IMG/VR virus record: IMGVR_UViG_3300027739_000008
Reading direction: 5' to 3' (one strand)
Source of the DNA: an uncultured virus (IMG/VR IMGVR_UViG_3300027739_000008)
Taxonomy: Duplodnaviria; Heunggongvirae; Uroviricota; Caudoviricetes
DNA length: 64,000 nucleotides
Of this stretch, positions 7,879 to 62,037 are shown piece by piece (position 1 is the stretch's first letter; every line of letters starts with the position of its first letter). The notes below the pieces were generated by a model. It did no database searches and was not told the origin of the DNA. It saw nothing but the letters and a program-made list of their open reading frames with translations. The position numbers and the translations under genes are program-made.

Positions 7879-7950
7879 AGTAGGGTAGAGAAGCGGTATC
7901 TCGCCAGTCTCATAAACTGGAAATCGAAGGTTCAAATCCTTCCCCTGCTA
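7879..7950 (+). tRNA. tRNA with CAT anticodon (Met, or Ile2 if lysidine-modified); CCA not encoded
   Basis: Acceptor AGTAGGG/CCCTGCT, D arm GAGA/TCTC, anticodon arm CCAGT-CTCATAA-ACTGG, T arm GAAGG-TTCAAAT-CCTTC. Confidence 0.92.
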
Positions 7951-8003
7951 ACTGGTTGAATCCAAACCAACGGACGCCGAAAGGACTTCGCCGTGAAGGA
8001 TTT

Positions 8004-8100
8004 TAGAAGTGAGGCCGCAAGGTGTAAGGCGGCTGACACCTTTCAAAGTGCGAGAGTGGCTTATATGTCGCACCCTCCGGGTCAACGCCGGACACTTCTA
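8004..8100 (+). ncRNA. Putative structured RNA (closing stem + pseudoknot + two hairpins)
   Basis: TAGAAGTG/CACTTCTA closure, GGCCGC/GCGGCT crossing AAGGTGT/ACACCTT, GTGCGA/TCGCAC, TCCGG-7 nt-CCGGA. Confidence 0.55.
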
Positions 8101-8111
8101 TATTTTTTTAG

Positions 8112-8230
8112 GCAGTCACGCGCCTTATGTCTGGACGGAAACAGCCCTTTTAGATGATGGCCGCTTCCGGCGAATCGTGACCCGTCCTCCGGTTTTCCGG
8201 GCGTGACGCGGCCATCTTCTAAAGGGGTTG
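8112..8230 (+). ncRNA. Conserved cis-regulatory RNA sequestering the downstream RBS
   Basis: ~23-bp stem CAGCCCTTTTAGATGATGGCCGC/GCGGCCATCTTCTAAAGGGGTTG plus GTCACGC/GCGTGAC and GGACGG/CCGTCC pairings; conserved at 47790-47906. Confidence 0.65.
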
Positions 8231-8236
8231 TTTCTT

Positions 8237-8395
8237 ATGAGTAAAGGATTTATTGACAAAAGAACTAAAGCCTATAAATGGACTTTGGAACAATTCAAAA
8301 AAGCCAGAAAAGCAGCCGAAGAAGAAACATTTGATCGTTTTTATCTTTATTTAATAAAGAAAGAAAGAGAAGATCGCGCGGCGGGCAAAAAATGA
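8237..8395 (+). CDS. Small basic hypothetical protein (52 aa, not in ORF track)
   Basis: AAAGGGG RBS, ATG 8237, MSKGFIDKRTKAYKW...AAGKK, stop overlaps helicase ATG (ATGA). Confidence 0.55.
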   Translation: MSKGFIDKRTKAYKWTLEQFKKARKAAEEETFDRFYLYLIKKEREDRAAGKK

Positions 8396-15289: not shown

Positions 15290-16313
15290 TCCTTCCCCCT
15301 TTATAATTCACCCCGCTATCATACTTAACCCATTCTCCCCCGCGATCCGCGTCTACCACCGTCCACGGACGCAGAAAGTCGGGAACGAAGAGATGCCGGT
15401 CACAGCCCGTTTTTTGCCGTTTATCGTCCAGGGCATAGTCAAGATTGTCCTGGTCGCGAGAGCACGTCCAAACGCCGCCTTTTGAGTCGTGCGCGTCCAT
15501 CGGCGTCGAGTGCAGACACGTCCTGCAGTTGCGCTCGATCCTGTCCCGAGAAAAGGGAACGAACGCCCATCCCGCCCCGGTATCCTTCCACTCCGTCCCG
15601 AAACAAAGACCGTGATACTCGCAAAACAGGCAATCTTGGTTTTTCGGATCATCCGACAACACGCCCGCGGGCCGCGGCGACTCGACCACGGCGCGAGCTT
15701 TACCCGCGAGACCCTGAGCCATCAGGTGATCCAATTTTACCCGTTCCCCGTAGATTTCGTCAGTGTTCTTGTTGACGGCGATATACATGGCCCGGTCAAA
15801 TTCACCGGGGTAGGATTCATTCATCTTGTACATATAGACTTGCATCTGCGCGAAGTGGTAGGGCTTGGCCTGTTGCACTCCCTTGTTTTTTAATTCCTGA
15901 AAGCTTTTCTCATTATGCGTCTTGAACTCGACGACGTGCCACTTTTTCGGCGCTTCCTCGAAACCTTGGGCGATCCCGTCGAGCGATCCGCCCGAGTGTT
16001 CGCAGAAAGAGACGCGGAACTGTTGTCCGGTCGAAGGGTCGCGGTCGTAAACCGTGATTCCGGCATTCCGCAAGTCGGCGACGATACGGCCCTCCTCGCG
16101 GTTCCCGGTATCAAAGAGGCGGAGGACGCGCCCAGGGAAGTTGGGAGCTAGGGCCCACCGGAAGGAAAACCAGAGGGCGCGGCGGCAGGGGTTCCCGAGA
16201 AGAGATGCCCCGAGGTGGGGACGTCGCCAGTCTCCGTTATGGGTCTCATAGTAGTCGGTGACGTGCTGGATGAAGCGAGCCGGGGGGCGGATGGCGGTCG
16301 AGATGTCAGGCAT
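15270..16313 (-). CDS. PD-(D/E)XK exonuclease, Cas4-like Fe-S type
   Basis: HLGAS..G.PC.R.LW, GSLDG, VEFKT, AQMQVYM, C.FC....C. Confidence 0.85.
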   Translation of the reverse strand: MPDISTAIRPPARFIQHVTDYYETHNGDWRRPHLGASLLGNPCRRALWFSFRWALAPNFPGRVLRLFDTGNREEGRIVADLRNAGITVYDRDPSTGQQFRVSFCEHSGGSLDGIAQGFEEAPKKWHVVEFKTHNEKSFQELKNKGVQQAKPYHFAQMQVYMYKMNESYPGEFDRAMYIAVNKNTDEIYGERVKLDHLMAQGLAGKARAVVESPRPAGVLSDDPKNQDCLFCEYHGLCFGTEWKDTGAGWAFVPFSRDRIERNCRTCLHSTPMDAHDSKGGVWTCSRDQDNLDYALDDKRQKTGCDRHLFVPDFLRPWTVVDADRGGEWVKYDSGVNYKGGRIEESRV

Positions 16314-16560
16314 GGTCGTACCGACTTATTATTGCCATCGCGTTGTTTCGCTTCTTTTGGCATTCAACGCAAGAACAATGAATGTAAGAAGGATCAGAAA
16401 AAGCTTTCAGCGCCGCGAGCAGCTCGTCGCGCTGGGCGGTGAGTTCTTCAAGCTGGTCGGCGGCCATTTTGGCGCGTGCAATGAGCTGAACGACTCCCAT
16501 GGTATCACATGGTTCGCACGGGGCGCGAAGGCACGCAATGTCAAATTCAAGGCTCATCAT
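16306..16560 (-). CDS. Hypothetical protein
   Basis: 84 aa in leftward operon with overlapping start/stop. Confidence 0.5.
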   Translation of the reverse strand: MMSLEFDIACLRAPCEPCDTMGVVQLIARAKMAADQLEELTAQRDELLAALKAFSDPSYIHCSCVECQKKRNNAMAIISRYDHA

Positions 16561-16966
16561 TCCCCTCCACGCTTTTCAGCGACTTCTCGACCATCTCAAT
16601 GATGAAGTCATCCGGAGTGGTAGCGCCAAAGTGTTCGACCTCGGCGCGCTGCCAGCCGTACAGGGCGCGGAGGGCGGAAAGAAGGGAATCGCGCTGGATC
16701 AATAACGCGTCCCTATCTTCTTTCATTTTCTCGACGCAATCGTCGGCAAGGTCTTCATCGGAAGCGGAACGGCACGCATTCACGCACGCGACTATTCGGC
16801 GGGCGTTGGCTTTTTGGATTTCGAGCGCAACTTCTTCGCCTTTTTTCGACAGCCAACCCCAGCCGCGAATCTGTGCAACTATATTTCCTTCACAGAGAGG
16901 CGCGCCAATATAATCGCCCATTCCATCTTCTTCCCACGGCTCCGGCGTGTGTAGTTTTTCCATCAT
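16547..16966 (-). CDS. Phage hypothetical (HTPEPW...ANARRIVACVNAC family)
   Basis: Recognisable phage accessory motif. Confidence 0.7.
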   Translation of the reverse strand: MMEKLHTPEPWEEDGMGDYIGAPLCEGNIVAQIRGWGWLSKKGEEVALEIQKANARRIVACVNACRSASDEDLADDCVEKMKEDRDALLIQRDSLLSALRALYGWQRAEVEHFGATTPDDFIIEMVEKSLKSVEGNDEP

Positions 16967-17196
16967 TCCCCTCCCTCAAGCTCGGCTATGAGCGCGTCGG
17001 CGAGTTGCCGTGATCTTTTCGCAATCGTCATAGTGCATTCAGGGGGAAAGCCGCCCGCTATTATTCCCGCCAACGCCTGCCCCGCGTAATACTCGCGGAG
17101 ACTCATGCCGGGCGAAGCGTTGTTATAATAGCGTGTTGTTTCCGTAATTCGTTCGCCGATTGGGCGGGCAAACGCAGCCTTGCTTGTGTCTTTCAT
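16963..17196 (-). CDS. Phage hypothetical (GMSLREYYAGQALAG...ADALI family)
   Basis: Common phage motif; GGAGG RBS before MKDTS. Confidence 0.7.
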   Translation of the reverse strand: MKDTSKAAFARPIGERITETTRYYNNASPGMSLREYYAGQALAGIIAGGFPPECTMTIAKRSRQLADALIAELEGGE

Positions 17197-17353
17197 CTTA
17201 TTACCGCCTCCAACGCCTTGACGCGAAGTGTCGCGCCCATAAAAATTGCCGTATCTACCGGCCGTTGCCACAGAGCGAACGCCGCAACCATCTCTTTCCG
17301 AGTAATATGACCAAGACGAAACTCGGCCATGGTATCTTTCAATTCTGCGTATT

Positions 17354-17545
17354 TCATACCGTCTCCTTCAAATTCTCAATCGCCTGTCGTTTAAGCGCCT
17401 CGAATAATTCCGCCACGGCGGCATAGTCGCGCGAGGAGGTGGCCGATAAGGTAATAAGACGGTTATCTCCTATGCTTGCCGTTGCTGTATATCCGCCGTC
17501 AACCTCGTCGATGGTCACGGTCAGGCCGTTTACGATGGTTTTCAC
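17354..17545 (-). CDS. Hypothetical protein
   Basis: Conserved in unit B 54773-54976. Confidence 0.6.
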   Translation of the reverse strand: MKTIVNGLTVTIDEVDGGYTATASIGDNRLITLSATSSRDYAAVAELFEALKRQAIENLKETV

Positions 17546-17752
17546 CTGAATTCCTCCTCAAGTTCTTTTCTTTCAGCCGCCTTGTTAAAAAAGGCGTTGT
17601 CTACCGCCACTTGTGCGCCCTGAATGACATCGCGCGGCAGGGTCGAAAGATCCTCGCGCTCGGGGTGCTGAAGGCGCAAATAGATAGAAATGGCGCGGGT
17701 ATATTCGCCCATGCGAACCGCCCGGCGAAAGCGGGGGTCTTGAAGGATGTCG

Positions 17753-17992
17753 CTATTTTCCATCGCCATACCTCGTGCCTGAATGCGAATCCGGGCCAAA
17801 GAGCGCGCCTGCGATGGCCCGTCCGATTCTCGCAAAAAGGTTGTTTTCATACCTCTTGAGCGATTCCTCGGTGCTTTCAGCCAGCCGGTCAATGTTTTTC
17901 ATTTGTATAACATATACCAAGTTGGCAAGAGTCAAGGCAACTAAAAGTATGCCACAAATTAAAACGCCCGCAATCAAAACAATGTCTTTCAT
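17753..17992 (-). CDS. Small membrane protein
   Basis: N-terminal TM; GGAGG RBS; downstream of leftward promoter at ~18016-18044. Confidence 0.5.
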   Translation of the reverse strand: MKDIVLIAGVLICGILLVALTLANLVYVIQMKNIDRLAESTEESLKRYENNLFARIGRAIAGALFGPDSHSGTRYGDGK

Positions 17993-18113
17993 TCCGTCCG
18001 TCCTCCGATGTTTTAATTCTATACCAGAAAATAAATAAATACAAGATAAATCGGCGTTTTTCTCGTTTATTTTTGTATAATAAAATAAAGTGCCTTATAC
18101 GAAAATAAACTAG

Positions 18114-18157
18114 AAAAACGGCCCCATAGTGGGGCCGGGCCTGATGGGGGCCTATAG
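18114..18157 (-). terminator. Terminator after SSB gene
   Basis: Minus strand CGGCCCC-ACTAT-GGGGCCG-TTTTT; conserved at ~55906-55947. Confidence 0.65.
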
Positions 18158-18159
18158 CG

Positions 18160-18675
18160 TTACTTCCCCGGCCAGTTTTCCCACGGCTTGTAGGGCAAGC
18201 CGGTTGCCGGATTGACGGGGGGCTGTCCGGCCACCACGGGCGCGGGCTTGGTCACGATGGTGACGGGTGCGGTGGGGGCCGTCTGATACGCCATATAGTT
18301 CTTGATGCGGTTCGACGGCCCGTACTCGCCCTGTCCGGGTTGGATGCCGACCTTGACGGTCATCGGGATATTGTGGAGCTCCTCGGAGTTCTGGGCTCCC
18401 GGCTTGTTTACGGCGGCGACGATGGTCGCGAGCTCCCGGTTGGCGATCTCGACTGCCTTGGGGTTCGGGTTCCAGAGATTCAGGATCACGAAAATGATCC
18501 TTCCCTGAAATTCGCCTTCGATGATCTCGACGCGCAACGAGAGATACTGTCCATCCCCTGTCTTGGTCGGCTTGATTTCGGATTCCGTGATGACGGCCTT
18601 ATAGTCTCCGACCGGGATCGGGGTGAAGTCGTCCATGGGTTTCGCGTTCTGGTAGTCATTTCCTAATGCGGGCAT
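18160..18675 (-). CDS. DUF669 single-stranded DNA-binding protein
   Basis: PIPVGDYKAVI..SE.K.TK.G.G.YL.L..EI.EG...GR; next to Sak4. Confidence 0.85.
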   Translation of the reverse strand: MPALGNDYQNAKPMDDFTPIPVGDYKAVITESEIKPTKTGDGQYLSLRVEIIEGEFQGRIIFVILNLWNPNPKAVEIANRELATIVAAVNKPGAQNSEELHNIPMTVKVGIQPGQGEYGPSNRIKNYMAYQTAPTAPVTIVTKPAPVVAGQPPVNPATGLPYKPWENWPGK

Positions 18676-18739
18676 AATGTTTCCTTATAAAAAAAGTTAG
18701 AGAATTACCCGGCGCGCGCTAACGGCGGCCGGGGGAGAG

Positions 18740-19006
18740 TTATTTATTCGCGAGCCACGCGATGAACCGGCAAGAAAGACTCATTTCGGTCTCGTAGCCG
18801 TTCGGTCCGGTAAACTTGCGCGCGGGGGCGTTCGGAATGGCGTCGAAAACCGCGTGCAGTTCCTCGATTTTCTTTTTTTCTTCCTGCCAGTTATCGTACC
18901 AAGAATCCTTGCTGGCTTCTGTGCTTTTCAGTCTGGTTTCCAGATCCGCGATTCTCTTCTCGGCCGCAACCAACGCGGCGGGTTTTCGCTTTTTCGCCTC
19001 TGCCAT
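18740..19006 (-). CDS. Coiled-coil hypothetical (unit A only)
   Basis: 88 aa, AAGGA RBS. Confidence 0.55.
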   Translation of the reverse strand: MAEAKKRKPAALVAAEKRIADLETRLKSTEASKDSWYDNWQEEKKKIEELHAVFDAIPNAPARKFTGPNGYETEMSLSCRFIAWLANK

Positions 19007-19047
19007 TTTTTCCGTCCTTTCCCCGCGATAGGCACGGGGGCCGTATT

Positions 19048-19809
19048 TTATACCAAATACTCCGCGAACGGGTTGACGCCTTCCACGAAGGGCAAATCGA
19101 CCTTGATCCCGAGCCGGTTTTTCGAGACGTGCGCCGGGTGCGGGTAGCAGGTGATGATCCGTTCGCCCGAGGTGTTCGCCCGCTTGCCATCCTTGTCGGT
19201 GCCGGTCACGAAGGTTTTGAGTTTCAGGAAGGCCACGACGTCCACGTCGTCCACATAGTGCGATACGGATTTCTTGTGCATCCGGATCGTATACCGCGAG
19301 AACTGGGGTTGATCGGGGAGATCAAGCGACTCTACCTCGACATGGGCGAGGAAGAGGACATTCATGCCCTTTTCGTCGGCCAAGCGCTGCGCGATCTTGC
19401 GGAGCTCGAAGTGGTAGTTCGCGACGGCGGAATACCCCGCGCCGTATCCGCCCAAAGCGGTATTGATTGACGCGCCTTTCCCGCCCGCTTTCCGGTCGGC
19501 CTCCATGATCTCGGCCTCGGCGAAGGTATTGAACTTCGTAACGGTGTCGAATGCGACCGTTTTGAAGGGGTGATCCTCGGTCAAAAGCGCCATTGCCGCT
19601 TCCATGACATCGTTCGTGCTTTTTGCGACGGGGAACATGGCGACGTCTCCGCGCGATTCTATCGATTTCGAGCCGTCTTCGGCGCGAACCATTACCAGAT
19701 TCGGGAAGTATGAGGCAAGCGTCGTTTTACCGATACCGCCCTCCCCGCAAATGGTCATAATGAGCGGCCGCCGTTCCGGGGCGGTCAGGGAAGAAAGTGA
19801 TACTGCCAT
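19048..19809 (-). CDS. Sak4-like AAA_24 ssDNA-annealing ATPase
   Basis: GEGGIGKTT, EDG, KTVAFDTV, GGYGAGY, FLAH, KNR. Confidence 0.88.
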   Translation of the reverse strand: MAVSLSSLTAPERRPLIMTICGEGGIGKTTLASYFPNLVMVRAEDGSKSIESRGDVAMFPVAKSTNDVMEAAMALLTEDHPFKTVAFDTVTKFNTFAEAEIMEADRKAGGKGASINTALGGYGAGYSAVANYHFELRKIAQRLADEKGMNVLFLAHVEVESLDLPDQPQFSRYTIRMHKKSVSHYVDDVDVVAFLKLKTFVTGTDKDGKRANTSGERIITCYPHPAHVSKNRLGIKVDLPFVEGVNPFAEYLV

Positions 19810-19810
19810 A

Positions 19811-20458
19811 CTACCTCACCACCAGGGTCGAGCCCTGCGCATAGCGGATGCCGGGGAGGGAGAATTCGATCATCTCGAAATGATCCTCAACGGGCATTGC
19901 TTGTTTATAAAACACCATGTCCCGGTCAAGCGGATTTTCCGCGTCGGGTTTCTGGTACAGCGTGCCCGAGGCAAGTCCTTCCTTGATCTTGGTCGCCGAA
20001 AGCTCCGGTTCCTTGTACAGGAACTCCGGTATCTTCGCGATATCGAACGACGAATCCGTCTTGACCGACGCAGCCGTCGCCTGAATGCCCGCCGAGAAAA
20101 GCTCGGTCTTGTGCTTTTTCATGCCGAGGGCGTCGAACGCGAACCAAAGAAGATCCTTGATCCGTCCAGCCTCGTTCTCGCGAGCCTTCGCGCGCTTCGA
20201 AAGCCGGTCCATCTCTTCTTTGAGGGAATCGCGTTCGGCCTGAGCCGTCGCCGCGTTGGCCTTCAGGTTCTTGAAGAACTTGCAGATTCTGTCAAACTTG
20301 GAATCGAATGCCTCGGATTCCTCTTTAACCCATGCCGCGAAGGTCGTTTTTTCTTCGTCGGTCAGTTCCCGGGTTTCCCCGGTTTCTTCGTCGGTCAGTG
20401 ATTCGATAAGGGCGGATAAAGCCTTTACGTCACCCACGATGGTGTAAATAGTGCTCAT
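19811..20458 (-). CDS. Gp157-like (Gam-like) coiled-coil protein
   Basis: K.D.I....KNL.A......E..RL..R......IP...K...IKE.L..G...PG; first gene of leftward operon. Confidence 0.75.
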   Translation of the reverse strand: MSTIYTIVGDVKALSALIESLTDEETGETRELTDEEKTTFAAWVKEESEAFDSKFDRICKFFKNLKANAATAQAERDSLKEEMDRLSKRAKARENEAGRIKDLLWFAFDALGMKKHKTELFSAGIQATAASVKTDSSFDIAKIPEFLYKEPELSATKIKEGLASGTLYQKPDAENPLDRDMVFYKQAMPVEDHFEMIEFSLPGIRYAQGSTLVVR

Positions 20459-21020: not shown

Positions 21021-22922
21021 ATGCAAAAAAAGAAGGGCATAAACTTTCAAGAGGCGAACCGCATTGCCTCGGAATCAATACGCGACTGGCTCCCGGGATA
21101 CGACGACGGGAAGCGGCAAGGCGACTGGGTGAACGGAATTCCGAACCCGACGCGACCGGACCGGGACACGGCTTCTTTCGGCGTCAATCCGGTCGAAGGC
21201 CGATACCATGATTTTACCGGCGAGACGCATGATCTCCTGCATCTCTACGCGGTCGTCAATGGTTTGACCGATAAAGACGCGGCCTTGTCTCTCTTGCCCT
21301 CATCTCCCGAGCCCTACGAAACCAATATTTCCGCCCTTTTAGCCTCGCTCGACAAGCAGCGTGCCCCGACTATTCCCGGCGAATGGGACCACGTTCACCA
21401 GTATTCTGACGGCGTATGCTCTTTTTTTGTCTGTCGGAAGGATGCGCGGGACGACAAGCCGAAAGAAATCAGGCCGGCCACAATTTCGGGCGGTCAAGTT
21501 ATTTTCAAGAAACCCCCGAAGCCCGCGCAAGGGTATCCCTTGCTTAATCTCGACAAGATATTGACGGCACCGGCCGACGCTGAAATAGTCCTTGTGGAAG
21601 GCGAGGTCAAGTCCGAAGCGATTCCCGCGCCCTATATTGCGACATCCATCGCCGGGGGCGCGAACGCGTGGAAGGATACCGACCTTTCCCCTCTTCAAGG
21701 TCGTCGCGTTATCCTTTGGCCCGACAATGACGAGCCCGGCAAGAAGTGCATGGAAGAAATCCGCGCTATTTTGACCGATACCCGAATCATTACGCCCTCA
21801 TCCGACTGGCCAAAAGGCGCGGACGCGGCGAATTTCTCGTATGACGAACGGATTTCTATTATCCAAAGCGCGAAAAAGGTCGAGAAAAAATCCGCGTTCC
21901 CCTTGGTCAAGATCGGATCCCGTGATCTGAAGGCGCGGCAATGGCTCATAAAAGGGCTGATATCGAAACACTCTTTCACCTCGATTTTCGGCGCGTCGTA
22001 TACCGGTAAATCCTACGTAGCGGTTGATCTCGCGTGTCGCGTTGCTACCGGTGAGGATTTTTGCGGGTATCCGGTCAAAACTCCCGGCGCGGTGGTCTAT
22101 ATAGCGGGTGAAGGTTACGACGGAATAGAAAAGCGGTTTCTTGCATGGTCGATAAAAAATAATAAGAAAATGGATGAACTGCCGATCTATATTTCCCTTA
22201 TGCCCGCAGCGCTCGGAAATGATGATATAATGAAAACCGTAGAAGATTCGGTCCGGGACGTTGCCGGTCTGCACGACGGGAAAATATCCCTGATTATCTT
22301 CGATACCTGGGCGCGTAACTTTGAAGGAAACGAGAACGACTCGGCAGACACGAGCGCGGCCGTTCGGACGATAGACAACCTGAAAAACACCTATGAATGT
22401 GCTGCCTTGATCGTGCATCATACAGGGAAAGGAGACCAAACCAAGGCGCGAGGATCGTCGGTGCTCTATGGAGCACTCGACTTTGAATTCTCGGTCACGA
22501 ACAAAAATAGCACGATTCACATGGAAAATACGAAAATGAAAGACGGAACGCCTCCCCCGGTATTGCGTTTCGGGTTTGAAAATATCGTCGTCGGACAGGA
22601 CGAAGACGGCGAGGATGAAACCTCGGCGGTATTAAACCAGATTGATATTGAGGGAATTACCGGGCAAGCGGGCACGAAAGAAAAGACCTCGAAAGGGCTC
22701 GCTTGCGCGCTTGATATCCTGAAAGCGAACCCTACGGGAATAATTACTTCGACTTTTTTGTCGGAATTGACATTAAAAACCAGTGAACGAACCGCGTTCC
22801 GAACAAAAAAAAGCATGACCGAGGAAGGCAAGCTGATAGAAATTGACGGCAAAATATTCTTGCCGAAGGCAACTGAAGAAGGGAAAAAGGCAGAAAACAA
22901 TGAAAATATGGATATTTTCTAG
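21021..22922 (+). CDS. Toprim primase fused to AAA_25 (RepA/SF4-like) helicase
   Basis: LVEGE, LWPDND.PG, DAAN; GASYTGKS, YIAGEG, IIFDT, GNEN, IVHHTGK, RGSS. Confidence 0.9.
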   Translation: MQKKKGINFQEANRIASESIRDWLPGYDDGKRQGDWVNGIPNPTRPDRDTASFGVNPVEGRYHDFTGETHDLLHLYAVVNGLTDKDAALSLLPSSPEPYETNISALLASLDKQRAPTIPGEWDHVHQYSDGVCSFFVCRKDARDDKPKEIRPATISGGQVIFKKPPKPAQGYPLLNLDKILTAPADAEIVLVEGEVKSEAIPAPYIATSIAGGANAWKDTDLSPLQGRRVILWPDNDEPGKKCMEEIRAILTDTRIITPSSDWPKGADAANFSYDERISIIQSAKKVEKKSAFPLVKIGSRDLKARQWLIKGLISKHSFTSIFGASYTGKSYVAVDLACRVATGEDFCGYPVKTPGAVVYIAGEGYDGIEKRFLAWSIKNNKKMDELPIYISLMPAALGNDDIMKTVEDSVRDVAGLHDGKISLIIFDTWARNFEGNENDSADTSAAVRTIDNLKNTYECAALIVHHTGKGDQTKARGSSVLYGALDFEFSVTNKNSTIHMENTKMKDGTPPPVLRFGFENIVVGQDEDGEDETSAVLNQIDIEGITGQAGTKEKTSKGLACALDILKANPTGIITSTFLSELTLKTSERTAFRTKKSMTEEGKLIEIDGKIFLPKATEEGKKAENNENMDIF

Positions 22923-27066: not shown

Positions 27067-27994
27067 AGATTCCTATTTTTCCGACACCGACGACCATCTC
27101 CGGCGCGTATTCTACGAAACGTATTTCGCGCCGCTCTTGGCCGCGATACCCCGCGCACCGAAGCTGAACGCCTCAAGCAACGCCCTTCTCGCGGCCTTGT
27201 CTTCCGGGCGCGTCATTTACAAGGACGGCGTTTTCTCGGGGTCGTTTAATGCGTCGATTTCCATGAACTTGGCCGCCTTCGCGAAATTCGACCGGCACAC
27301 GAAAAAATGGTACGGGCGGCCACCTTCGAACGTGTTGGCATCGGCAATCATGGCGAACGACAAGCGGGCGGCACTGATAAATAAAATAAATCAAGAGATA
27401 GACAACTTGGCAAAAAAGGCCGACGAAACCGTCAAAACGCTCTCATTTTCGACCGATTTGCCACTTTTCTCGATGAATCAGGACGTTTTGGAGACGCTTC
27501 CCCTCGGGACACGCCCAACACTGGACGCCCGGACGGCCGAGAAATTGCGGAAAGATTATACCGAATCTCAGCGGCTGAACGTCAAAAACTGGACGCCCGA
27601 GCAAATCGTGCGCCTCCGCGAGATGGTCGAACGGTATCAAACATCGGAAACAAACGAATCTCTAACCGATATGATTATGAAGGAATGGGACGTTTCCGCG
27701 AACAAGGCCAACTTTCTGGCCCGACAAGAAACGTCGCTTTTTTTCTCGAAATTCTCGATGAACCGCGCAAGTTCGGCGGGGGTGCGGAAATACCGATGGT
27801 CAACGTCGCACGACGGAAGGGTACGGGACAAACTGCCGGGACGCGCAAAAAACGCGCCGAACCATGAACATCTTGACGGTGAGATTTTTACCGTTGATGG
27901 GCCGGGGGGAGTGGTTGATTTGAAGACGGGGCGGCGCGCGCATCCAGGGGAAGACTATAATTGCCGGTGCGCGGCTATTTGGGTGTTGGAGTGA
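27053..27994 (+). CDS. Head morphogenesis protein (SPP1 gp7/MuF)
   Basis: AR.ET, Y.WSTSHD.RVR, H..LDG, HPGEDYNCRC. Confidence 0.9.
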   Translation: MLRVKDSYFSDTDDHLRRVFYETYFAPLLAAIPRAPKLNASSNALLAALSSGRVIYKDGVFSGSFNASISMNLAAFAKFDRHTKKWYGRPPSNVLASAIMANDKRAALINKINQEIDNLAKKADETVKTLSFSTDLPLFSMNQDVLETLPLGTRPTLDARTAEKLRKDYTESQRLNVKNWTPEQIVRLREMVERYQTSETNESLTDMIMKEWDVSANKANFLARQETSLFFSKFSMNRASSAGVRKYRWSTSHDGRVRDKLPGRAKNAPNHEHLDGEIFTVDGPGGVVDLKTGRRAHPGEDYNCRCAAIWVLE

Positions 27995-28037
27995 CTACCG
28001 CGAGCTACCGCGAGTCGAGTTGAAGCAGTTGTTAGCT
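27995..28037 (-). repeat. Truncated attC (R''/L'' half only)
   Basis: AGCTAACAACTGCTTCAACTCGACTCGCGGTAGCTCGCG, nearly identical to left part of attC A; right arm absent. Confidence 0.8.
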
Positions 28038-28322
28038 TATTGACTGTAACCATTCTTCCGGCGTTTTATACTCTGTGTATTCAAGCGCATTGCATACGCA
28101 GAACTCAGGATAGACTTGGTCGTTATCATCAAATAAATCGCGCGATGCTTTAGTAAAAAGTTTCTGACAAGTATCGCAGGTATAAATTGCAGAAAAATCA
28201 CCGTATGAAATGTTTGTCTGGTAGTTCATTATTGACCCGGCAGGGAATAAACGACCGCAAGCAAAACACATATGAGATTTTTTTGTCTTTACGATTTTAT
28301 CCGTTAACACTTCGCAACTCAT
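28032..28322 (-). CDS. Solo cassette gene, Zn-finger-like phage protein
   Basis: KT.K.H.CFACG, CDTC, C.C; stop TAA in R'' box. Confidence 0.8.
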   Translation of the reverse strand: MSCEVLTDKIVKTKKSHMCFACGRLFPAGSIMNYQTNISYGDFSAIYTCDTCQKLFTKASRDLFDDNDQVYPEFCVCNALEYTEYKTPEEWLQSIS

Positions 28323-28379
28323 AAAACCCCCTCTTCCGGCTGGCTATCCGTGTAACGCAGTTACGCGGTTGTCCAGTCC

Positions 28380-28454
28380 AGCTAACATAAATTAGACTGT
28401 TCAGCCTAACTTCCTTCTTGTTTTAATTCTATACCCTTTTTTAACTCCAGTCAA
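28380..28454 (-). promoter_or_regulatory. Pc-like promoter plus attI-like site for solo cassette
   Basis: TTGACT-17-TAGAAT (28454-28426), then TTAGGCTG-AA-CAGTCTAA-TTTAT-GTTAGCT. Confidence 0.6.
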
Positions 28455-47910: not shown

Positions 47911-48600
47911 TTGAAAACTGGAATAATTTATATGTATACCTCTCCGTCCGGGAAGTCATACATAGGGCAGACAATCGATGAAAAAAGAAGAAAACATCAA
48001 CACCAATTTGATAAAATAAATATCTGTACCGCTTTCAAGAATGCCATTTATAAATATGGTTTTGATAATTTCAAATATGAAGTGCTGCATTCTGGAATAG
48101 AAACAAAAGAAGAATTAAACAGACTTGAAGAAAAAGAAATATCGGAAAGAAAAACACTCTCCCCGTTAGGATATAATTTATTGTCTGGAGGTAATTCAAG
48201 AATACCTTCCGAAGAAACAAGGAAAAGACAATCTTTAGCACAAATAGGGCGAAAACATACAAAAGAAACAATTATAAAAATGTGCCGGGTTCAGAAAGGA
48301 AAAAAGGTTTCTGAAGAAACAAGAGAAATATTGAGGATACAACATACAGGAAAAAAGCTATCAGAAGAACATAAGAATAAAATATCTAAAGGAAACAAGG
48401 GCCATTATGTTTCTCAAAAAAGTAGGGACATAACAATCCAGAGAAATAAGAAAAAAATACTTTGTGTTGAGACAGGAAAGATTTATGACTCTTTTTCAGA
48501 GGCGGCGAAAGAATACGGAGTAAAGAATCTTTCTTCTTTTTCAGCAGCGTTACGAAGTGAAAAAAATACCGCCTACGGTTTTCATTGGAGGCGGGCATAA
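47911..48600 (+). CDS. Free-standing GIY-YIG homing endonuclease with NUMOD3-like repeats
   Basis: GIIY...SYIGQT...R, GYN, SEETR/HTKET repeats; AT-rich; absent in unit A. Confidence 0.9.
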   Translation: MKTGIIYMYTSPSGKSYIGQTIDEKRRKHQHQFDKINICTAFKNAIYKYGFDNFKYEVLHSGIETKEELNRLEEKEISERKTLSPLGYNLLSGGNSRIPSEETRKRQSLAQIGRKHTKETIIKMCRVQKGKKVSEETREILRIQHTGKKLSEEHKNKISKGNKGHYVSQKSRDITIQRNKKKILCVETGKIYDSFSEAAKEYGVKNLSSFSAALRSEKNTAYGFHWRRA

Positions 48601-50285: not shown

Positions 50286-50435
50286 CCATAAAATAAAAAC
50301 ACCATCTTTGCCGTCTTATGTATCTCGAGCCCTTTTGTACCAGCAAAAGGTGACGCGCCGAATTCGACTCGGCGCGTTTTTTTTCTCCATTCTCCCCACT
50401 TGCCCCCGCGCCTTTTCCGTTGTAATATCATTCTC

Positions 50436-50762
50436 ATGAACGATCAAAAAACAGTGTGCGATGCTCATGTTTTATTGCTTCAGACCGTCGAGCGGGTGCA
50501 AGCCGGTCAGGAAAAACTATACAATCTGGACCGCGAAAAGGCGGCGGAATTATCCGAAATCAAGGTATCAATGGCCCGCATGGAAGCGAGCACGGGGGCG
50601 GGATTCGAGACGCTCGCCGAACAAATTGAATCCTTACGAAAAATGATCGCCGCGCAAAGCTCGCGGCACTGGAAACCCGGACACTTGGTCGCCCTTGCCG
50701 GGTCTTTTTTTGGTTCGGCGGGAATCGTTCTCGCCGCGTGGATATCGAGGGGGAAATCATGA
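50436..50762 (+). CDS. Coiled-coil/TM lysis-associated protein (unit B)
   Basis: Distant homolog of 10729-11079. Confidence 0.55.
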   Translation: MNDQKTVCDAHVLLLQTVERVQAGQEKLYNLDREKAAELSEIKVSMARMEASTGAGFETLAEQIESLRKMIAAQSSRHWKPGHLVALAGSFFGSAGIVLAAWISRGKS

Positions 50763-51238
50763 GCAAAAAACTTGAAGACCTGAAACCGATGGTCATGGTC
50801 GCGGCGCTCAAGGCGCTCGCGGAGCTCAAGTCGGCGGGCGTTCAGGTCGTCGTAACCTACACGTTCCGGACGACCGAGGAGCAACAGGCTCTTTACGCGC
50901 AGGGCCGAAAGCCGATTGCCGAGGTTAACGCACTCCGCGCGAAGGCGGGTCTTTACCAGATCAAGGAATATCTCGGGAAAGACAAGAAAACCCATTCAGA
51001 CAACGATTATTCCGTCACTAACTGCGACGGGGTGAAAAAGCGAAGCGCACACCAGACCGGAAACGCGCTCGACGTGGTGCCCGATATTGACCCCTCAGAA
51101 CGCGATGTGCCGGGCTGGCCCGTGCCTTCCGATCCGCGATGGGAGAAAATCGCGGTTGCTTTTCGCCGCCATGGTTTCGAGTGGGGCGGGGACTGGGAAG
51201 AATTCCCGGATTATCCGCATTATCAGTATAGGGGCTAA
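50759..51238 (+). CDS. Endolysin, M15 family (L-Ala-D-Glu peptidase-like)
   Basis: RT.EEQ.ALYAQGR, SAH..G.ALD, EWGGDW..F.DYPH.Q. Confidence 0.9.
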   Translation: MSKKLEDLKPMVMVAALKALAELKSAGVQVVVTYTFRTTEEQQALYAQGRKPIAEVNALRAKAGLYQIKEYLGKDKKTHSDNDYSVTNCDGVKKRSAHQTGNALDVVPDIDPSERDVPGWPVPSDPRWEKIAVAFRRHGFEWGGDWEEFPDYPHYQYRG

Positions 51239-51502: not shown

Positions 51503-51964
51503 TTGTGCGCGCGCGGACCGTTGCGTTACTTTTTATTGTTGGCGTTGCTCTTGCTCTCATCGCTGGCCTTTTCGCAGGATGGCGGGTCGCCGCTTCCGGT
51601 GCCGGACTTATCGGAATCGTCGCAGGACTCGCTAGAACAGCTTCTAAGCGAGCCGCCGACGACGCCCGCCGCGCAGATAAAGCCGGGCATGACGCTCGAG
51701 CAGAGGCAAGCCGCGACGCTGAAAGCATGGATCGAGTGGTCGAAAGAGGTGACGATCTGGCAAGAAGAGGTCAAAGCCTCGTGGAGCAAAGCGAAGGGCT
51801 CATACGAGAAAGCAGACGTGGCGCGAGTAAAACAGATCGAAAGCCGTGATATCGAGATCGCCGCGCTCAAGGATCAGCTACGTCAAGCGCAGACCGCCGC
51901 ATGGATCGCAGGATTCGGCGGCGCGGTTACTGGTTTCGTTATAGATAGAATCGTATCGCGCTAA
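51503..51964 (+). CDS. Spanin-like long-frame protein (unit B)
   Basis: Homolog of 11332-11793. Confidence 0.55.
   Translation: MCARGPLRYFLLLALLLLSSLAFSQDGGSPLPVPDLSESSQDSLEQLLSEPPTTPAAQIKPGMTLEQRQAATLKAWIEWSKEVTIWQEEVKASWSKAKGSYEKADVARVKQIESRDIEIAALKDQLRQAQTAAWIAGFGGAVTGFVIDRIVSR
51505..51849 (+). CDS. Spanin-like nested protein (unit B)
   Basis: Homolog of 11334-11669. Confidence 0.55.
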   Translation: MRARTVALLFIVGVALALIAGLFAGWRVAASGAGLIGIVAGLARTASKRAADDARRADKAGHDARAEASRDAESMDRVVERGDDLARRGQSLVEQSEGLIRESRRGASKTDRKP

Positions 51965-52016
51965 CATTGAGTTGACCTGCAATCTACTGATTGTCAGGTC
52001 GAACTCGTTGTTATGC
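51959..52016 (-). repeat. attC site (unit B, distal)
   Basis: GCATAAC-AAC-GAGTT[C]GACCTG[A]CAATC-AGTA-GATTG-CAGGTC-AACTC-AAT-GTTAGCG. Confidence 0.9.
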
Positions 52017-52027
52017 GTCGTGGCCTG

Positions 52028-52231
52028 TTACTTATCGCTAAACCAAACCGTAACCACGGAGGCAGGGCCGACAAGACCGATGGCGTGAACGATTTCGCCC
52101 TTCCAATTTCCAGACGGCGACCAATCGCACTGAACCAGCTTAATCATATTGCCGATCCAGCAACCGATACAGAAAATACCAATGATAAGTTGTGCAACCT
52201 GAACGCCAATTCCCGCATTTCGTGCTCTCAT
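52028..52231 (-). CDS. Cassette gene, small membrane protein
   Basis: AAGGAG RBS; hydrophobic; W..N.IKL..CD...KGE..H.IG pattern of phage membrane proteins. Confidence 0.75.
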   Translation of the reverse strand: MRARNAGIGVQVAQLIIGIFCIGCWIGNMIKLVQCDWSPSGNWKGEIVHAIGLVGPASVVTVWFSDK

Positions 52232-52307
52232 AAAAAACTCCTTTCCTGATACGCTCAGGCCGCGATTTAGTTCGTGTCGGTATAACCTGTTATACCGCTA
52301 AGAATCC

Positions 52308-52371
52308 GCATAACATTATATTAACCTGCAATGACCTACTGGGCATTGTCAGGTTGAACTACTTGTTGGGC
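52308..52371 (-). repeat. attC site (unit B, proximal)
   Basis: GCCCAAC-AAGTAGTT[C]AACCTG[A]CAATG...CATTG-CAGGTT-AATATAAT-GTTATGC. Confidence 0.85.
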
Positions 52372-52596
52372 GTTGCCGGGTGCGTCTGGTAACTCCATCC
52401 AATGAGTACAAGCCGGATCGTGATTGATAAACCATTTTGTGTATTGCTGAACACCGTCTCTTACGCCATTTGTGATCGGTTTGAAAAAATCCTCGACATG
52501 AACTGTTTTAATGCTTCCATTTGCAAAGTGCATAAGCACAGACCGATCACTTAAATGTGGCTCACGATCCGTACATTTAATCCATTCTCCGTACAT
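52336..52596 (-). CDS. Cassette gene, DUF551-like protein
   Basis: GGAGG RBS; WIKC.DR.P...THWMELPD.P; reads into attC. Confidence 0.8.
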   Translation of the reverse strand: MYGEWIKCTDREPHLSDRSVLMHFANGSIKTVHVEDFFKPITNGVRDGVQQYTKWFINHDPACTHWMELPDAPGNAQQVVQPDNAQ

Positions 52597-52642
52597 AAAA
52601 CCTCCCGGCAACTTGGTTGACTGTCCGTGTAAATCGCCAGAT

Positions 52643-53113
52643 TTATGCGGCTGGCAATCCGCCTCCCCTTCGAACCTTTTCAACATACTCCCAATCGGTC
52701 CCGTGAACCCGCGTTCCGGTTCTCCCGCGTCGATAAGCTGAAATCGCCTGGTCCATATCGCCCATTGCGCAAAAATGGTCCATTATGATATGGCCGGCAA
52801 TAATCGCCGACTGCAGCGGGCAATAGGGGTTATATTCTCCCCATTTCGAAGCCCGTTCGGCGTGATAATCCGGCGTTTCATGCAGTCCATAGTCTCCGAC
52901 GTCTAAAGGGTCCGGGTGCGAAACGTTGGCACCATAACTCGATTCCGCAAACCGAAGGCCCCTGAGTATCCACTCCGGGCATCCGGTTTCATACGACGCA
53001 ATCTCGTAAATGGTTAGTTCGGGCCCTGAAAAATCGTTATATTGAATAGTCGGGCTTTCGCACGATAAGCAAAGGGCGGCCGTTAGGGCCAAGAGTACCA
53101 GGAGTTTTCTCAC
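52643..53113 (-). CDS. SLT-like lipoprotein (unit B)
   Basis: Homolog of 14122-14583; new C-terminus runs into cassette leader. Confidence 0.65.
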   Translation of the reverse strand: MRKLLVLLALTAALCLSCESPTIQYNDFSGPELTIYEIASYETGCPEWILRGLRFAESSYGANVSHPDPLDVGDYGLHETPDYHAERASKWGEYNPYCPLQSAIIAGHIIMDHFCAMGDMDQAISAYRRGRTGTRVHGTDWEYVEKVRRGGGLPAA

Positions 53114-53327
53114 ACAAAGCCTCCGAAAGTATTTTTTTAACCGACCTTTGCGCGGTGTCGTACTGCTCTATTGTAATATTCTTTTTCAGCAAAAGATCTA
53201 GTTCTTCCATAATCGCGAAAGAAAGCGCCTCGACGGGATCCATGTATGCGGTCGCCGGCATTGACGCCGAGCCGAGCTTTTCGTCTGTCATCCCTTCAAA
53301 AAGGAAAGGCTCATTTTCTCGGTTCAT
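53037..53327 (-). CDS. Hypothetical (unit B)
   Basis: Homolog of 14507-14797. Confidence 0.55.
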   Translation of the reverse strand: MNRENEPFLFEGMTDEKLGSASMPATAYMDPVEALSFAIMEELDLLLKKNITIEQYDTAQRSVKKILSEALCEKTPGTLGPNGRPLLIVRKPDYSI

Positions 53328-58366: not shown

Positions 58367-60511
58367 ATGACAAATCTTCAAGCAGCCCTTGAGTATGCGG
58401 CGCGCGGGTGGCCAGTTATTCCTCTTCATACCGCACGTCCTGACGGATCATGCACGTGTAGGCATGACGATTGCAGAAGTATAGGAAAGCATCCGCGTAT
58501 TGAAAAAGGTCTTTTGAATGCTTCTACCGATCCTGAAAAAATAAAAGGATGGTGGGGTGGATGGCCCGCCGCAAATATCGGCGTGGTAACTGGTCCCGAA
58601 TCCGGTATTATCGTTATGGATATCGATGATGAGGAGCTTGCCAAAGAAGCGATCGGCGACAAGGAAATTCCCGAAACGCTCATGCAGGAAACCGGATCGG
58701 GCGGGAAACACCTGATTTTCGCGTATCCCGGGAAGCCGGTCAAATCGGGGACGAAGATCATACCAGGAGTCGACTCTCGCGCGGATGGCGGGTATATCGT
58801 TGTCCCCCCGTCAAATCACAAATCGGGGAGAAATTACGAATGGATCAATTCCTTCGATCCTGCCCCCGCTCCCACATGGTGGGTTGACCTCATCGACAAG
58901 TCAACCGCGCCAATTCATACCGCGCGGACAGATAACCCGGAAGGTTCGGCAATTTTCGAGGGGTCCCGTAATAACTCCCTTACGTCGGTCGCCGGTTCCC
59001 TGCGCAAGTTGGGTTTCGGATACGATGAAATTCTTGCGTCTTTATTGAACCGTAACGCGGCCGCCTGTCGACCCCCTCTCGACGAAAAAGAAGTCGAAAT
59101 AATAGCCCGGTCGGTTTCCGGATATGCGATAAAGACGACGGAAGAGGAAGCCGCCGAAAAAGAAGGCGGGCTTATTGCCTCCCGGATATGGGAAGCGGAA
59201 CAGAAAAAGCGGGCGGAAATCATTATCGCGTCGAAAGTAACCGCAGCGGGTCCCATGCCGGAAGGCATTATCCCGAACGATGGCCTTTTGCGCGAGGTGT
59301 ATGAATACGTGATGTCGATATCCCGGAAGGAGCAGCCGCTCGCTGCCCTCGGCGCCGCAATATCAGTGGTTTCCACGCTCATGAACCGAAAATATGCTTC
59401 CTATACCAATCTCCGGGCGAACGTGTTCATAGCGACTCTGATACCTTCCGGGCAGGGTAAAGACGTTGTTATCGGGGTAATACCGGATCTTTTGATCCGT
59501 GCCGGTGCGGAACGGTTCGTCGGCGGAGAGCCGGTTTCCGGGACCGCGATCATATCGGCGTTATCTGAAGTACCAGTCCGTTGCTATGCCCTCGACGAAT
59601 ACGGCCGGTATCTTTCAGGGGTAAACAATAAAAATGCGAACCCGAATAAAATAGAGATCGGTGACGTGCTCACGAAAATCTGGTCATGCTCGAATAAGCC
59701 GTATACTGGAAAGGAACGGGCGGACCGGAAAACAAACAAACAGCTTATTATTAGATCCCCTTTCGTCGTCGTGAACGGTGTCACGGTCCCGGATCGCTTT
59801 TGGTCGGCGATTACTTCGATGGACGCTTCGGACGGATTCCTTGGTCGGTATATCGTGCTCAATTCTCCGGATTACGCGAAAACGCTTTTCCCGGAACATG
59901 GTGCACCCCCCGCGTCACTCATCGACAAACTGAAGAGCCTTTATGAGTTTTTCCCGCAATCGGGGAATTTGGCCTCGGTGTATTCCCCGGAAATCGAGAT
60001 TGACCCGGTTGTTATTGTCCCGAGTCCCGACGCGCGGGAAATGTGGGAAGAGCTCGCGGAAAAGTATTCCCGGATAGCTTTCGAGAAAAAGGCATTTTCC
60101 AGTATTTATAACCGCGTCGCTGAAAATGCGATGAAACTCGCGATGATCTACGCTACTGCGCGGGACTACAAAAAGCCGTCTATGACTCTTGAGGCGATGA
60201 GCTGGGGGGCTTCTTTGGCGATATGGTCCGCCGAGACGATCGTCGAGCAGATTCAACGGTGCGTCGCGGATAACGAAAACGAAAAGCTTTTCAAGGAAAT
60301 TATTGCACTTATTCAGGATGCAGGACCCGAAGGGGTTCCCCCGTCGGTACTCATTCAACGCAAGGGACTGGGAAAAGGAGGGTTTGCTTGGAAGGACATA
60401 ATGGCTCAAATTGAGGCGTCAGGATCGGTATTTTTGCAGACTAAAAAGCCTGAGGGATCGGGAAGGCCGTCGACTCGATGGGTCGCAGCCGAGTTTTTTC
60501 AAGCTGAATAA
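58367..60511 (+). CDS. Bifunctional primase-polymerase (Prim-Pol, AEP) + PriCT + DUF3987-like helicase domain
   Basis: AL.YA.RGW.V.PL, NIG.VTG, MDID, TGSGG.H, D.RA.GGY.V.PPS.H, EG.RN, PSGQGKD, LDE, DGFLGR. Confidence 0.9.
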   Translation: MTNLQAALEYAARGWPVIPLHTARPDGSCTCRHDDCRSIGKHPRIEKGLLNASTDPEKIKGWWGGWPAANIGVVTGPESGIIVMDIDDEELAKEAIGDKEIPETLMQETGSGGKHLIFAYPGKPVKSGTKIIPGVDSRADGGYIVVPPSNHKSGRNYEWINSFDPAPAPTWWVDLIDKSTAPIHTARTDNPEGSAIFEGSRNNSLTSVAGSLRKLGFGYDEILASLLNRNAAACRPPLDEKEVEIIARSVSGYAIKTTEEEAAEKEGGLIASRIWEAEQKKRAEIIIASKVTAAGPMPEGIIPNDGLLREVYEYVMSISRKEQPLAALGAAISVVSTLMNRKYASYTNLRANVFIATLIPSGQGKDVVIGVIPDLLIRAGAERFVGGEPVSGTAIISALSEVPVRCYALDEYGRYLSGVNNKNANPNKIEIGDVLTKIWSCSNKPYTGKERADRKTNKQLIIRSPFVVVNGVTVPDRFWSAITSMDASDGFLGRYIVLNSPDYAKTLFPEHGAPPASLIDKLKSLYEFFPQSGNLASVYSPEIEIDPVVIVPSPDAREMWEELAEKYSRIAFEKKAFSSIYNRVAENAMKLAMIYATARDYKKPSMTLEAMSWGASLAIWSAETIVEQIQRCVADNENEKLFKEIIALIQDAGPEGVPPSVLIQRKGLGKGGFAWKDIMAQIEASGSVFLQTKKPEGSGRPSTRWVAAEFFQAE

Positions 60512-61082: not shown

Positions 61083-61441
61083 CAAAAACTCGTAATTACG
61101 CCGAATCCCGGCTACAAGCTGAAGCAGTAAAAGAACTATCTCTCCTAGGTGTTTATGTAATGCAAATACCTAACGGCGAGATTGCCAATATGTCAAAAAA
61201 GAAGTTCGCCCGACTGGTTGCCATGGGATTCCGCAAGGGTGCTTGGGACACGCTTTTGTTAGAACGCAATAAAAACCGTTTTTTCGGTCTTGAGTTTAAA
61301 CAGCCGGGAGAAGAGCAGCTTCCTTCTCAAAAAGCTTTCGAGCAAGTTTGTATCGCAAATAATTGGCCGTACAAAATAGCGGAGACGGTGGAGCAGGCTA
61401 TCGAGTCGGCGAAAGAATGGGGATTGATTAAGGGTATTTGA
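61079..61441 (+). CDS. VRR-NUC nuclease (unit B)
   Basis: Homolog of 23118-23468. Confidence 0.8.
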   Translation: MTKTRNYAESRLQAEAVKELSLLGVYVMQIPNGEIANMSKKKFARLVAMGFRKGAWDTLLLERNKNRFFGLEFKQPGEEQLPSQKAFEQVCIANNWPYKIAETVEQAIESAKEWGLIKGI

Positions 61442-61488
61442 CAAGAAATTGTTATAGTGTTATGATTTTTATAACAAACGGGAGAAAT

Positions 61489-62037
61489 ATGAAGATCATA
61501 AAAATATCTGGGTTTGAAGTTATTATCGATGACGAAGATTTTGAAAGAATTAAAAAACTTGGCTGGTATGTTCAAAAAAATCAAGACTATAAAGACGGAC
61601 GATTTTATTTTAATGCGGAAGTATTTATAAACGATAAAAGAACGGTAACAAAATTACACCGTTTTATAATGGGTTGTCAGGTTGGAGATAAAAAGCAAAT
61701 AGATCATATAAACGGAAATACTCTTGATAACAGAAAAGAGAATTTAAGATTTTGTACAAACAGTGAAAACATGGCAAATAAAAAGTTAATATCAAAAAAC
61801 AATAAATCAGGATATAAAGGTGTTAGTGTTGCAGGAAAGAAGTGGAAGGCGACGGTATATGTAAACTCAAAAGCATATAATTTGGGATACTTTGTAGATC
61901 CAAAAGAAGCAGCTAAGGAATACGATAATATGGTCAGATTCACCCACGGTCGATTTGCTCGCGTTAATTTCCCTGATGAAAAATATGATGAAGAAAAAGC
62001 TATTAAAATAGCTAAGGGGTGGGGATTATGCCGGTAG
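61489..62037 (+). CDS. HNH-AP2 homing endonuclease
   Basis: LHRFIM, IDHINGN.LDNRKENLR, N..N, SGYKGV, W.A, LG.F...EAA..YD. Confidence 0.92.
   Translation: MKIIKISGFEVIIDDEDFERIKKLGWYVQKNQDYKDGRFYFNAEVFINDKRTVTKLHRFIMGCQVGDKKQIDHINGNTLDNRKENLRFCTNSENMANKKLISKNNKSGYKGVSVAGKKWKATVYVNSKAYNLGYFVDPKEAAKEYDNMVRFTHGRFARVNFPDEKYDEEKAIKIAKGWGLCR

Follow-up and report, generated by a model that had tools for sequence, protein, structure and literature searches.

Different cassettes between the same flanking genes: a putative integrase-less integron array in two variants of an uncultured phage

Integrons are usually regarded as bacterial gene-capture devices; the locus described here lies in a tailed phage and is present twice in one assembled sequence, with different contents. 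The window, as the whole analyzed stretch of 64,000 nt is called below (IMG/VR record IMGVR_UViG_3300027739_000008, Caudoviricetes), contains two co-linear phage genome units, A and B, which lie about 40 kb apart and whose repeated segments are 77-98% identical. In both units, small co-oriented gene cassettes that end in hairpins are placed between a gene for an SLT-like lipoprotein and a convergent gene for a spanin-like protein. We consider it likely that the locus is a cluster of attC sites lacking integron integrases (CALIN), harbored by a phage that encodes no site-specific recombinase itself, and that the cassettes are exchanged as circles by means of a host integron integrase acting in trans.

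The hairpins and the ends of the cassettes

The recombined bottom strand of an attC site is described as carrying the boxes R' (RYYYAAC) and R'' (GTTRRRY), with extrahelical bases lying opposite the AAC, the first of them being separated from the last by a 6-bp stem (PMC5027507, available part of the text). The same features are found in an alignment of the eight window sites (A1), as AAC and GTT are invariant in the R' and R'' boxes, and a bulged G and a bulged T are situated on the arm opposite AAC (the 3' arm on the plus strand) with 6 bp of stem between them. The G and the T occupy the unpaired columns 50 and 43, flanking the six pairs of columns 44-49, and the G lies 8 nt from R'', so that the two correspond to positions 16 and 23. 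Compensatory changes are present at 11 of the 23 pairs. A covariance model built from the eight window sites alone (R1) detects these sites with E-values of 1e-10 to 1e-13, and chance is excluded because of these values and because 85% of the cells are paired in the alignment, as opposed to 24-41% with the partners slid.

With R1, 115 matches at E<=0.1 were obtained in the window and 36 viral loci, with up to seven sites per array (L019), and 99 of 103 matches have ..AAC and G.T.. at the expected offsets; this type of attC is present in 38 stretches on 36 uncultivated viral contigs. The model also detects sites in bacterial DNA, namely 25 in one locus (L061) and 45 in three others (L080-L082), all on one strand of about 64 kb of a Treponemataceae chromosome (G037:C1, ~986.6-1050.0 kb). 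This array of at least 70 model-detected attC sites has its last site ~0.9 kb from an intI gene (TIGR02249, 432 bits), which lies beyond that site on the presumed cassette-gene strand (minus, opposite the bottom strand). Of the bacterial genomes searched (13, out of 26 bacterial loci with the attC pattern), six have an IntI above the curated cut-off. To judge from their sequence, the hairpins of units A and B are genuine integron attC sites.

The cassettes themselves bear the mark of a circular intermediate. In an integron cassette, the first bases after the cut (TTRRRY) complement the R'' box of the cassette's own attC site and not that of the preceding one. Among 62 phage cassettes lying between two model matches (the duplicates L020 and L040 removed, with no further de-replication), the 5' heptamer equals the cassette's own R'' at all four variable positions in 48, compared with 7 of 99 for the partner within the array and 6.9% for random pairs; the Treponemataceae integron, taken as positive control, gave 18 of 18 vs. 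0 of 21. In unit A, five of the six cassettes match their own end: four do so throughout, and in one (own R'' GCTAGGA) the match is limited to the four variable positions. The sixth fails; the match of the first cassette was checked by eye. In unit B, cassette 2 matches (its 5' GTTATGC equals its own R''), and cassette 1 does so only in the form in which it occurs in another phage contig, L076.

As in a CALIN, unit B has two attC sites at a distance of 349 nt and unit A has six, with no PF00589 domain in G012, a record equal to unit A, or in the scanned window open reading frames (ORFs). A complete integron is not indicated, as there is no tyrosine recombinase and promoter-like sites are not above chance.

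Array contents and the proximal junction of unit B

Unit B contains exactly two attC-like sites, and the next best score on that strand in 51700-53300 is at most 5 bits with filters off. The distal site, attC B2 (51959..52016, bottom strand on plus; R' CGCTAAC, R'' GTTATGC; R1 73.2 bits), has a body that is 96% identical to that of an internal attC of unit A (12098-12162). It closes cassette 2 (51965..52313, minus strand), which measures 349 nt from G/TT to G/TT and includes a structured leader (52261..52314, minus strand; helices P1 and P2, then a ribosome-binding site; 47.1 bits with the leader model R2, discussed below) and a 67-aa hydrophobic membrane ORF (52028..52231, minus strand), for which no Pfam, PHROG or NCBIfam match and no relative among viral_contigs was found. 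The proximal site, attC B1 (52308..52371, bottom strand on plus; R' GCATAAC, R'' GTTGGGC; R1 62.0 bits), belongs to cassette 1 (52314..52663, minus strand), which is truncated at its 5' end and is without the GTTG that opens the same cassette in L076. Its 86-aa ORF (52336..52596, minus strand), a DUF551 protein (Pfam PF04448, E=1.6e-8), extends at its 3' end into attC B1, and its leader (52608..52665, minus strand) reaches only 28.8 bits with R2 because its first bases are lost. The two cassettes, one with a DUF551-like and one with a membrane protein gene, are therefore as the initial annotation had them.

The six attC sites of unit A (11787-11850, 12098-12162, 12715-12779, 13006-13067, 13299-13359, and 13601-13660, plus strand) are all of one polarity. 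Both arrays end, as had been noticed, at the same CGCTAAC (11788-11794 in unit A, 51959-51965 in unit B), the TAA of which (11791-11793 and 51962-51964) serves the convergent spanin-like gene as its stop codon. The flanking genes were correctly described as close homologs: the flank with the holin and spanin genes shows 91.2% identity across 708 nt, and the SLT flank shows 90.8% across 939 nt. No cassette of unit B is among the six of unit A, since blastn and tblastx match only leader and attC modules and not coding sequence.

The spanin-like ORF of unit B (51503..51964, plus strand, 153 aa) has an ORF embedded in the +1 frame (51505-51849) and its stop codon inside the terminal R box, and it comes after an M15 endolysin and a 79-aa holin-like ORF. 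Because family searches gave no match, its name describes position and architecture only. At the other end, the SLT-like lipoprotein ORF (52643..53113, minus strand, 156 aa) has a C-terminus changed by a fusion described below; its family assignment is weak and its name tentative, as the sole match is to phrog_342 (E=2.9e-4, for the unit A copy), with no Pfam or NCBIfam family and no PDB sequence match below E=0.35.

Cassette differences at attC boundaries are also seen among other phages. The locus L041 (equal to L070 and L074), whose spanin-like protein is 76% identical, keeps the fifth cassette of unit A with its attC and is without exactly cassette A6, and its crossover, which leads straight to the spanin junction, falls within the R' box, in the 8-nt AATGTTAG between diverged attC bodies. 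The DUF551 cassette recurs between two attC sites in L076 (blastn 84.7% over 354 nt, window 52663-52311) and in L077 (blastn 99% over 204 nt), and within 3 kb these contexts have nothing else in common with the window except a weak methylase-like match in L077 (42% over 66 aa). In nine pairs of cassettes that carry the same ORF at different loci, the leader is shared in six, the own attC in five and the preceding attC in one, which fits a unit bounded at G/TT. Even L010, whose spanin-like protein is 32% identical, has kept the junction at the spanin stop. Close relatives of the locus are few, as the SLT-like protein matches only the record equal to unit A and one contig ending in the gene, and the holin matches L041 and contigs that break off inside the holin; therefore, no broad table of the exact locus could be compiled. 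Of the rapid turnover that had been proposed for this lineage, the turnover at attC boundaries holds, with no cassette shared between flanks of about 91% identity, with the loss of A6 from L041 and with the DUF551 cassette in L076 and L077, whereas the word rapid goes beyond the data, since a rate cannot be calibrated from flanks of 91% identity.

The proximal end of the unit B array is of a different kind. The junction between the backbone, i.e., the end of the SLT-like gene, and cassette 1 lies at 52662..52663, with a 2-nt GG microhomology and no G/TT site: homology to unit A extends through 52662 and homology to the L076 cassette starts from 52663, with the GG common to both. In run X5, the SLT-like and DUF551 parts are located on separate contigs, which both break at 52662/52663. 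The initial annotation had cassette 1 fused to the SLT gene end and deprived of its GTT entry, and both statements are borne out. The minus strand reads GGAGGCGGATTG at 52666-52655 where GTTGGGCGGATTG was expected, and in L076 this cassette, placed immediately behind an attC, starts with exactly the latter; there the cassette opens with ...GCAAAT GTTGGGCGGATTGCC, and the counterpart in unit B is ...GAAGGGGAGGCGGATTGCC. The switch in homology falls within the last SLT-like codons, by which the C-terminus changes from ..GGFL in unit A to ..GGGLPAA in unit B, each followed by the stop.

Likewise, the attI-like site reported as gone from unit B is indeed absent. In unit A, this putative entry site (13981..14010, minus strand) consists of a short palindrome, TTTAT and GTTAGGC, and it is accompanied by a 34-aa ORF (14021..14125, minus strand) whose start overlaps the SLT-like stop (ATGA); neither has a counterpart in unit B. 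The junction is most simply explained by a single illegitimate, microhomology-mediated join. An origin at a secondary site, by insertion at the GTT after GGGGAGG of unit A followed by a 6-nt deletion, was considered as well; it requires two steps, and the two histories are inseparable. As had been proposed, the unit B array may be unable to capture at its entry site, and attC x attC exchange would still be open to it.

Leaders, entry sites, cargo, and related systems

In nearly every phage cassette, GGA or TGA comes directly after the G/TT, and helix P1 (4 bp), hairpin P2 (6-9 bp), GAYA, P1's return strand and a ribosome-binding site follow in that order. The leaders of the window (12042-12105, 12661-12722, 12958-13013, 13246-13306, 13553-13608, 13929-13987, 52261-52314, and 52608-52665, minus strand) are joined by 100 further matches in the loci. 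RNAalifold predicts 10 pairs for the leader, with compensatory changes in all 10, and over the 108 matches of the covariance model R2, 89% of the cells are paired vs. 25-34% with the partners slid, and cells with double changes number 330 vs. 107 in shuffles (in an alignment fitted to the model). We infer that the leader is an expression element. It is without an Rfam match; at the gathering threshold, Rfam finds only two tRNAs in the window, and there is no match at E<=1 in 11600-14300. A literature search on cassette leaders and stem-loops, at the level of titles and abstracts, yielded no description of such an element. R2 has no match in the chromosomal integron loci either, where the cassettes carry a plain GC hairpin after GTTAG...GAC. 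A phage cassette with this simple GC-hairpin leader of Treponema chromosomal cassettes does occur, as the first cassette of L043 (~3333-3400), hinting at exchange between the phage and chromosomal pools. Phage-type leaders and attC sites are also borne by short contigs in metagenome-assembled genomes of very different phyla (L045, L046, L049, L057, and L068), which resemble mis-binned phage fragments; L057 repeats L009.

The architecture of the unit A entry site (palindrome, TNTAT, GTTAG) recurs at the first cassette in L006 (~2467), L010 (~4529), L025 (~3266), L042 (~5758), and L043 (~3333), and this recurrent site in front of arrays in unrelated phage contigs is possibly an analogue of attI. 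No matching description of it was found in the literature searched. It is likewise present (28365-28394, minus strand) at a solitary cassette inside the head-morphogenesis module of unit A (27990-28420, minus strand), which is composed of the entry site, a leader (R2 43 bits), a 96-aa ORF (28032-28322) and a decayed attC retaining R'' and L'' only.

The cargo, judged from 89 cassette ORFs scanned, includes seven DNA methyltransferases, two Lar-like proteins, two DUF7336 proteins, two proteins with only sub-threshold matches of zinc-finger type and one each of RtcB, radical SAM, AAA_33 kinase, DUF551, and DUF7736, and 71 ORFs are without a Pfam family. The cargo with family matches is partly of anti-restriction type (DNA methyltransferases, Lar-like).

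CALINs in virulent phages, and their recognition by IntI1, were published in 2023 and were reported as rare (PMC9892861). The available part of that report describes arrays that are alike in having at least two co-oriented attC sites, no intI, small cassettes, orphan DNA methyltransferases as cargo and a bacterial integrase proposed as the enzyme. In contrast to it, two co-existing variants are compared directly here, with cassettes fully replaced, together with a relative differing by one cassette and an insertion point that overlaps the spanin stop and is conserved also in the distant L010; the recurrent entry site and the covarying leader are not mentioned in the available part of the report. 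What is new here is hence natural evidence of cassette gain and loss at G/TT in phage genomes, the conserved insertion point, the entry site and the structured leader.

The sedentary integrons of Treponemataceae (L061 and L080-L082 in G037) and of Treponema putidum (L047) are alike in that their attC core fits R1, in the own-end complementarity and in the co-oriented cassettes that begin with GTTAG...GAC followed by a hairpin. These chromosomal arrays differ by an intI ~0.9 kb away, by attC sites of 111-124 nt compared to 52-66 nt in most phage sites, and by a simple GC-stem 5' hairpin in place of the two-helix leader of R2. No integron attC sites in Treponema prophages are reported in the literature searched. 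Fused cassettes of class 1 integrons, as the available part of their description has it, are similar in that a cassette boundary is lost and a cassette is joined to the coding sequence of its neighbor, but they lose the attC of the upstream cassette, whereas unit B has lost the G/TT at the 5' end of its first cassette together with the entry site, and its fusion partner is a backbone gene (PMC4670013).

The recombining enzyme and competing explanations

Since the phage encodes no recombinase, a host IntI acting in trans is the source of activity that we infer, and this is supported by the published finding that phage-borne attC sites are recombined by IntI1 into attI1 (PMC9892861, available part). 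In the scheme that we propose, a CALIN would be placed between the SLT-like gene and the convergent spanin-like gene, and in each cassette a small ORF would stand behind a structured leader and a ribosome-binding site and be followed by an attC. The promoterless cassettes, co-directional with the upstream SLT-like gene, would be read on the minus strand and would come and go as circles cut at G/TT by an integron integrase that is most likely provided by the infected host. Units A and B would be co-existing strain variants whose arrays were completely exchanged, and a later illegitimate join at the microhomology would have cost unit B its entry site, its 34-aa ORF and 4-6 nt at the start of the DUF551 cassette, and by the same event fused that cassette to the last SLT-like codons.

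Several observations weigh against this scheme. The proximal junction of unit B is not at a recombination site, and 14 of the 62 cassettes are without a perfect match to their own end. In 67 cassette pairs, the leaders are at least 85% identical and both the ORF and the two attC sites differ, for which exchange at G/TT alone is insufficient. The central spacers of the window sites, expected to be unpaired with 5-6 nt per arm, have 6 nt, yet they contain three covarying pairs in 6-7 of the eight sites and one invariant pair. With regard to the enzyme, the search covered 27 of the 36 viral contigs that carry this type of attC, nine short ones being excluded. PF00589 is present in a single one of the 27 records, which is not among the 10 with a completeness of at least 90%; resolvases and Y1 transposases are absent from all 27, and the scanned ORFs of the window (150 aa or longer) include no tyrosine recombinase. 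A search of 401 Spirochaetota genomes for the capsid protein gave no match, which says nothing either way about the host or about a supply of IntI during infection. Neither an excision circle nor an empty site was seen among the contigs examined.

Some of these points would be expected if attC and leader modules served as portable homology, with the recombination proteins of the phage shuffling the ORFs by relaxed homologous recombination or single-strand annealing, and no IntI being involved. Such relaxed-homology shuffling has been proposed for the promoter/stem-loop cassettes of T4-type phages, which are small accessory ORFs in a hyperplastic phage region, each beside a conserved structured element and with an early promoter per repeat. 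The phage, which lacks an integrase, does have a recombination module (AAA_24, DUF669, Gp157, and a Cas4-type exonuclease), the 67 cassette pairs have a common leader but neither ORF nor either attC in common, and the body of the distal attC of unit B matches that of a unit A attC behind a different gene. However, recombination in linkers would not keep the match of each cassette to its own R'', which is observed as in a real integron (48 of 62 vs. 7 of 99), leaders are not linked to the preceding attC (shared in only 5 of 80 pairs with the same leader), and in L041 the crossover cannot lie outside 8 nt that are flanked by attC bodies which have diverged. Unlike in the T4-type cassettes, promoter-like sites are not above chance here, and the repeats have the anatomy of integron attC sites and ends defined by G/TT. 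We therefore regard shuffling by homology alone as unlikely.

It is less probable still that the hairpins are RNA or transcription signals, such as terminators or stabilizers, and that units A and B differ by ordinary phage mosaicism, even though the hairpins sit between small co-oriented genes, attC sites have been described as weak terminators (PMC9892861, available part) and the leader hairpin beside each ribosome-binding site resembles an expression element. A reading as promoters or terminators is not supported, as two promoter-like sites were found vs. 2.4 expected, none of them in a repeat, and no terminator-like site coincides with an attC and no T tail is present. In addition, the geometry of the bulges, the R boxes and the fit of a cassette to its own end are features found specifically in integron cassettes, and R1 also detects the 70-site array linked to intI.

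Exchange of cassettes by an integrase supplied in trans, if correct, may be part of a wider pattern, which we put forward tentatively and hold to be somewhat more doubtful than probable. Virulent phages of several unrelated backbones might keep an integrase-less integron platform, with an attI-like entry site and leader-bearing cassettes, and might borrow a host IntI or an unrecognized phage enzyme during infection to trade counter-defense genes (methyltransferases, Lar, RtcB) with one another and with chromosomal integrons, the leader being a new RNA element that would make promoterless cassettes expressible in a phage transcript. The cassette pool of integrons would then be a shared currency of the arms race between phages and hosts. 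Gain and loss of cassettes at G/TT within a phage genome is seen here from natural variants alone, one cassette moves between unrelated phages at 99% identity, and unit B is a concrete case of array decay after loss of the proximal site. The leader, if confirmed, bears on the expression of promoterless cassettes and on cassette formation.

The relation between the two units is itself a matter of assembly. The nearest record, G001, is 100% identical to positions 1-20000 of the window and has the same six attC sites as unit A; like the window, it is longer than one genome (L078, L079) and continues into a diverged second copy of 82-93% identity. In three runs, contigs specific to unit B have a uniform depth of 31-49, and contigs of segments that match unit A or are shared have depths of 390-626. 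Because of this roughly tenfold difference, and because G001 also runs through diverged variants, the tandem of A and B is read as an assembly path; the two are probably co-existing strains threaded together by the assembler and not two units of one genome.

The array of unit B is nevertheless real. A single 976-nt Logan contig spans it in runs X2 and X3 (51737-52712, 0 differences), and in X1 two overlapping contigs cover the spanin end, attC, cassette, attC, cassette, and SLT end. Runs X1-X3 are possibly the source samples of the window, yet they were independently assembled, and it was their contigs that were examined; run X5, from another study, contains parts only, and its uncovered stretches are uninformative. 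A joint in X3 that skips 646 nt (52015 to 52662) was rejected as a deletion variant, as it is a unit A contig aligning by means of a similar attC and the SLT end. That the array is a chimera of unrelated reads, the possibility raised initially and suggested by a contig that as a whole follows diverged variants over more than one genome length, at depths about tenfold apart, is thus extremely improbable in view of the spanning contigs and the even depth of the B-specific pieces. In the X1-X3 samples, loose ends and a 36.6-kb contig reveal further arrays, with the same modules and other genes.

Apart from the array, the window carries terminase, portal, capsid, tail, and baseplate genes, a lysis block and the recombination module. 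The region before the holin is replaced between the units (10137-11079 vs. 50400-51238) with no DNA similarity, unit A having a C39-like peptidase and a 116-aa ORF and unit B a 120-aa ORF and the M15 peptidase. The primase genes also differ, being of the AAA_25 type in A (21021-22922) and of the Prim-Pol type in B (58367-60511). Two further ORFs of unit B (47911-48600 and 61438-62037, both plus strand) are of the GIY-YIG/NUMOD3 type, beside the tRNA gene, and of the HNH endonuclease type, ahead of the terminase region. Finally, a 273-nt tandem duplication of 88% identity is located at 6680-7225 (plus strand), within an 804-aa ORF (4847-7261) that comes after the baseplate genes.

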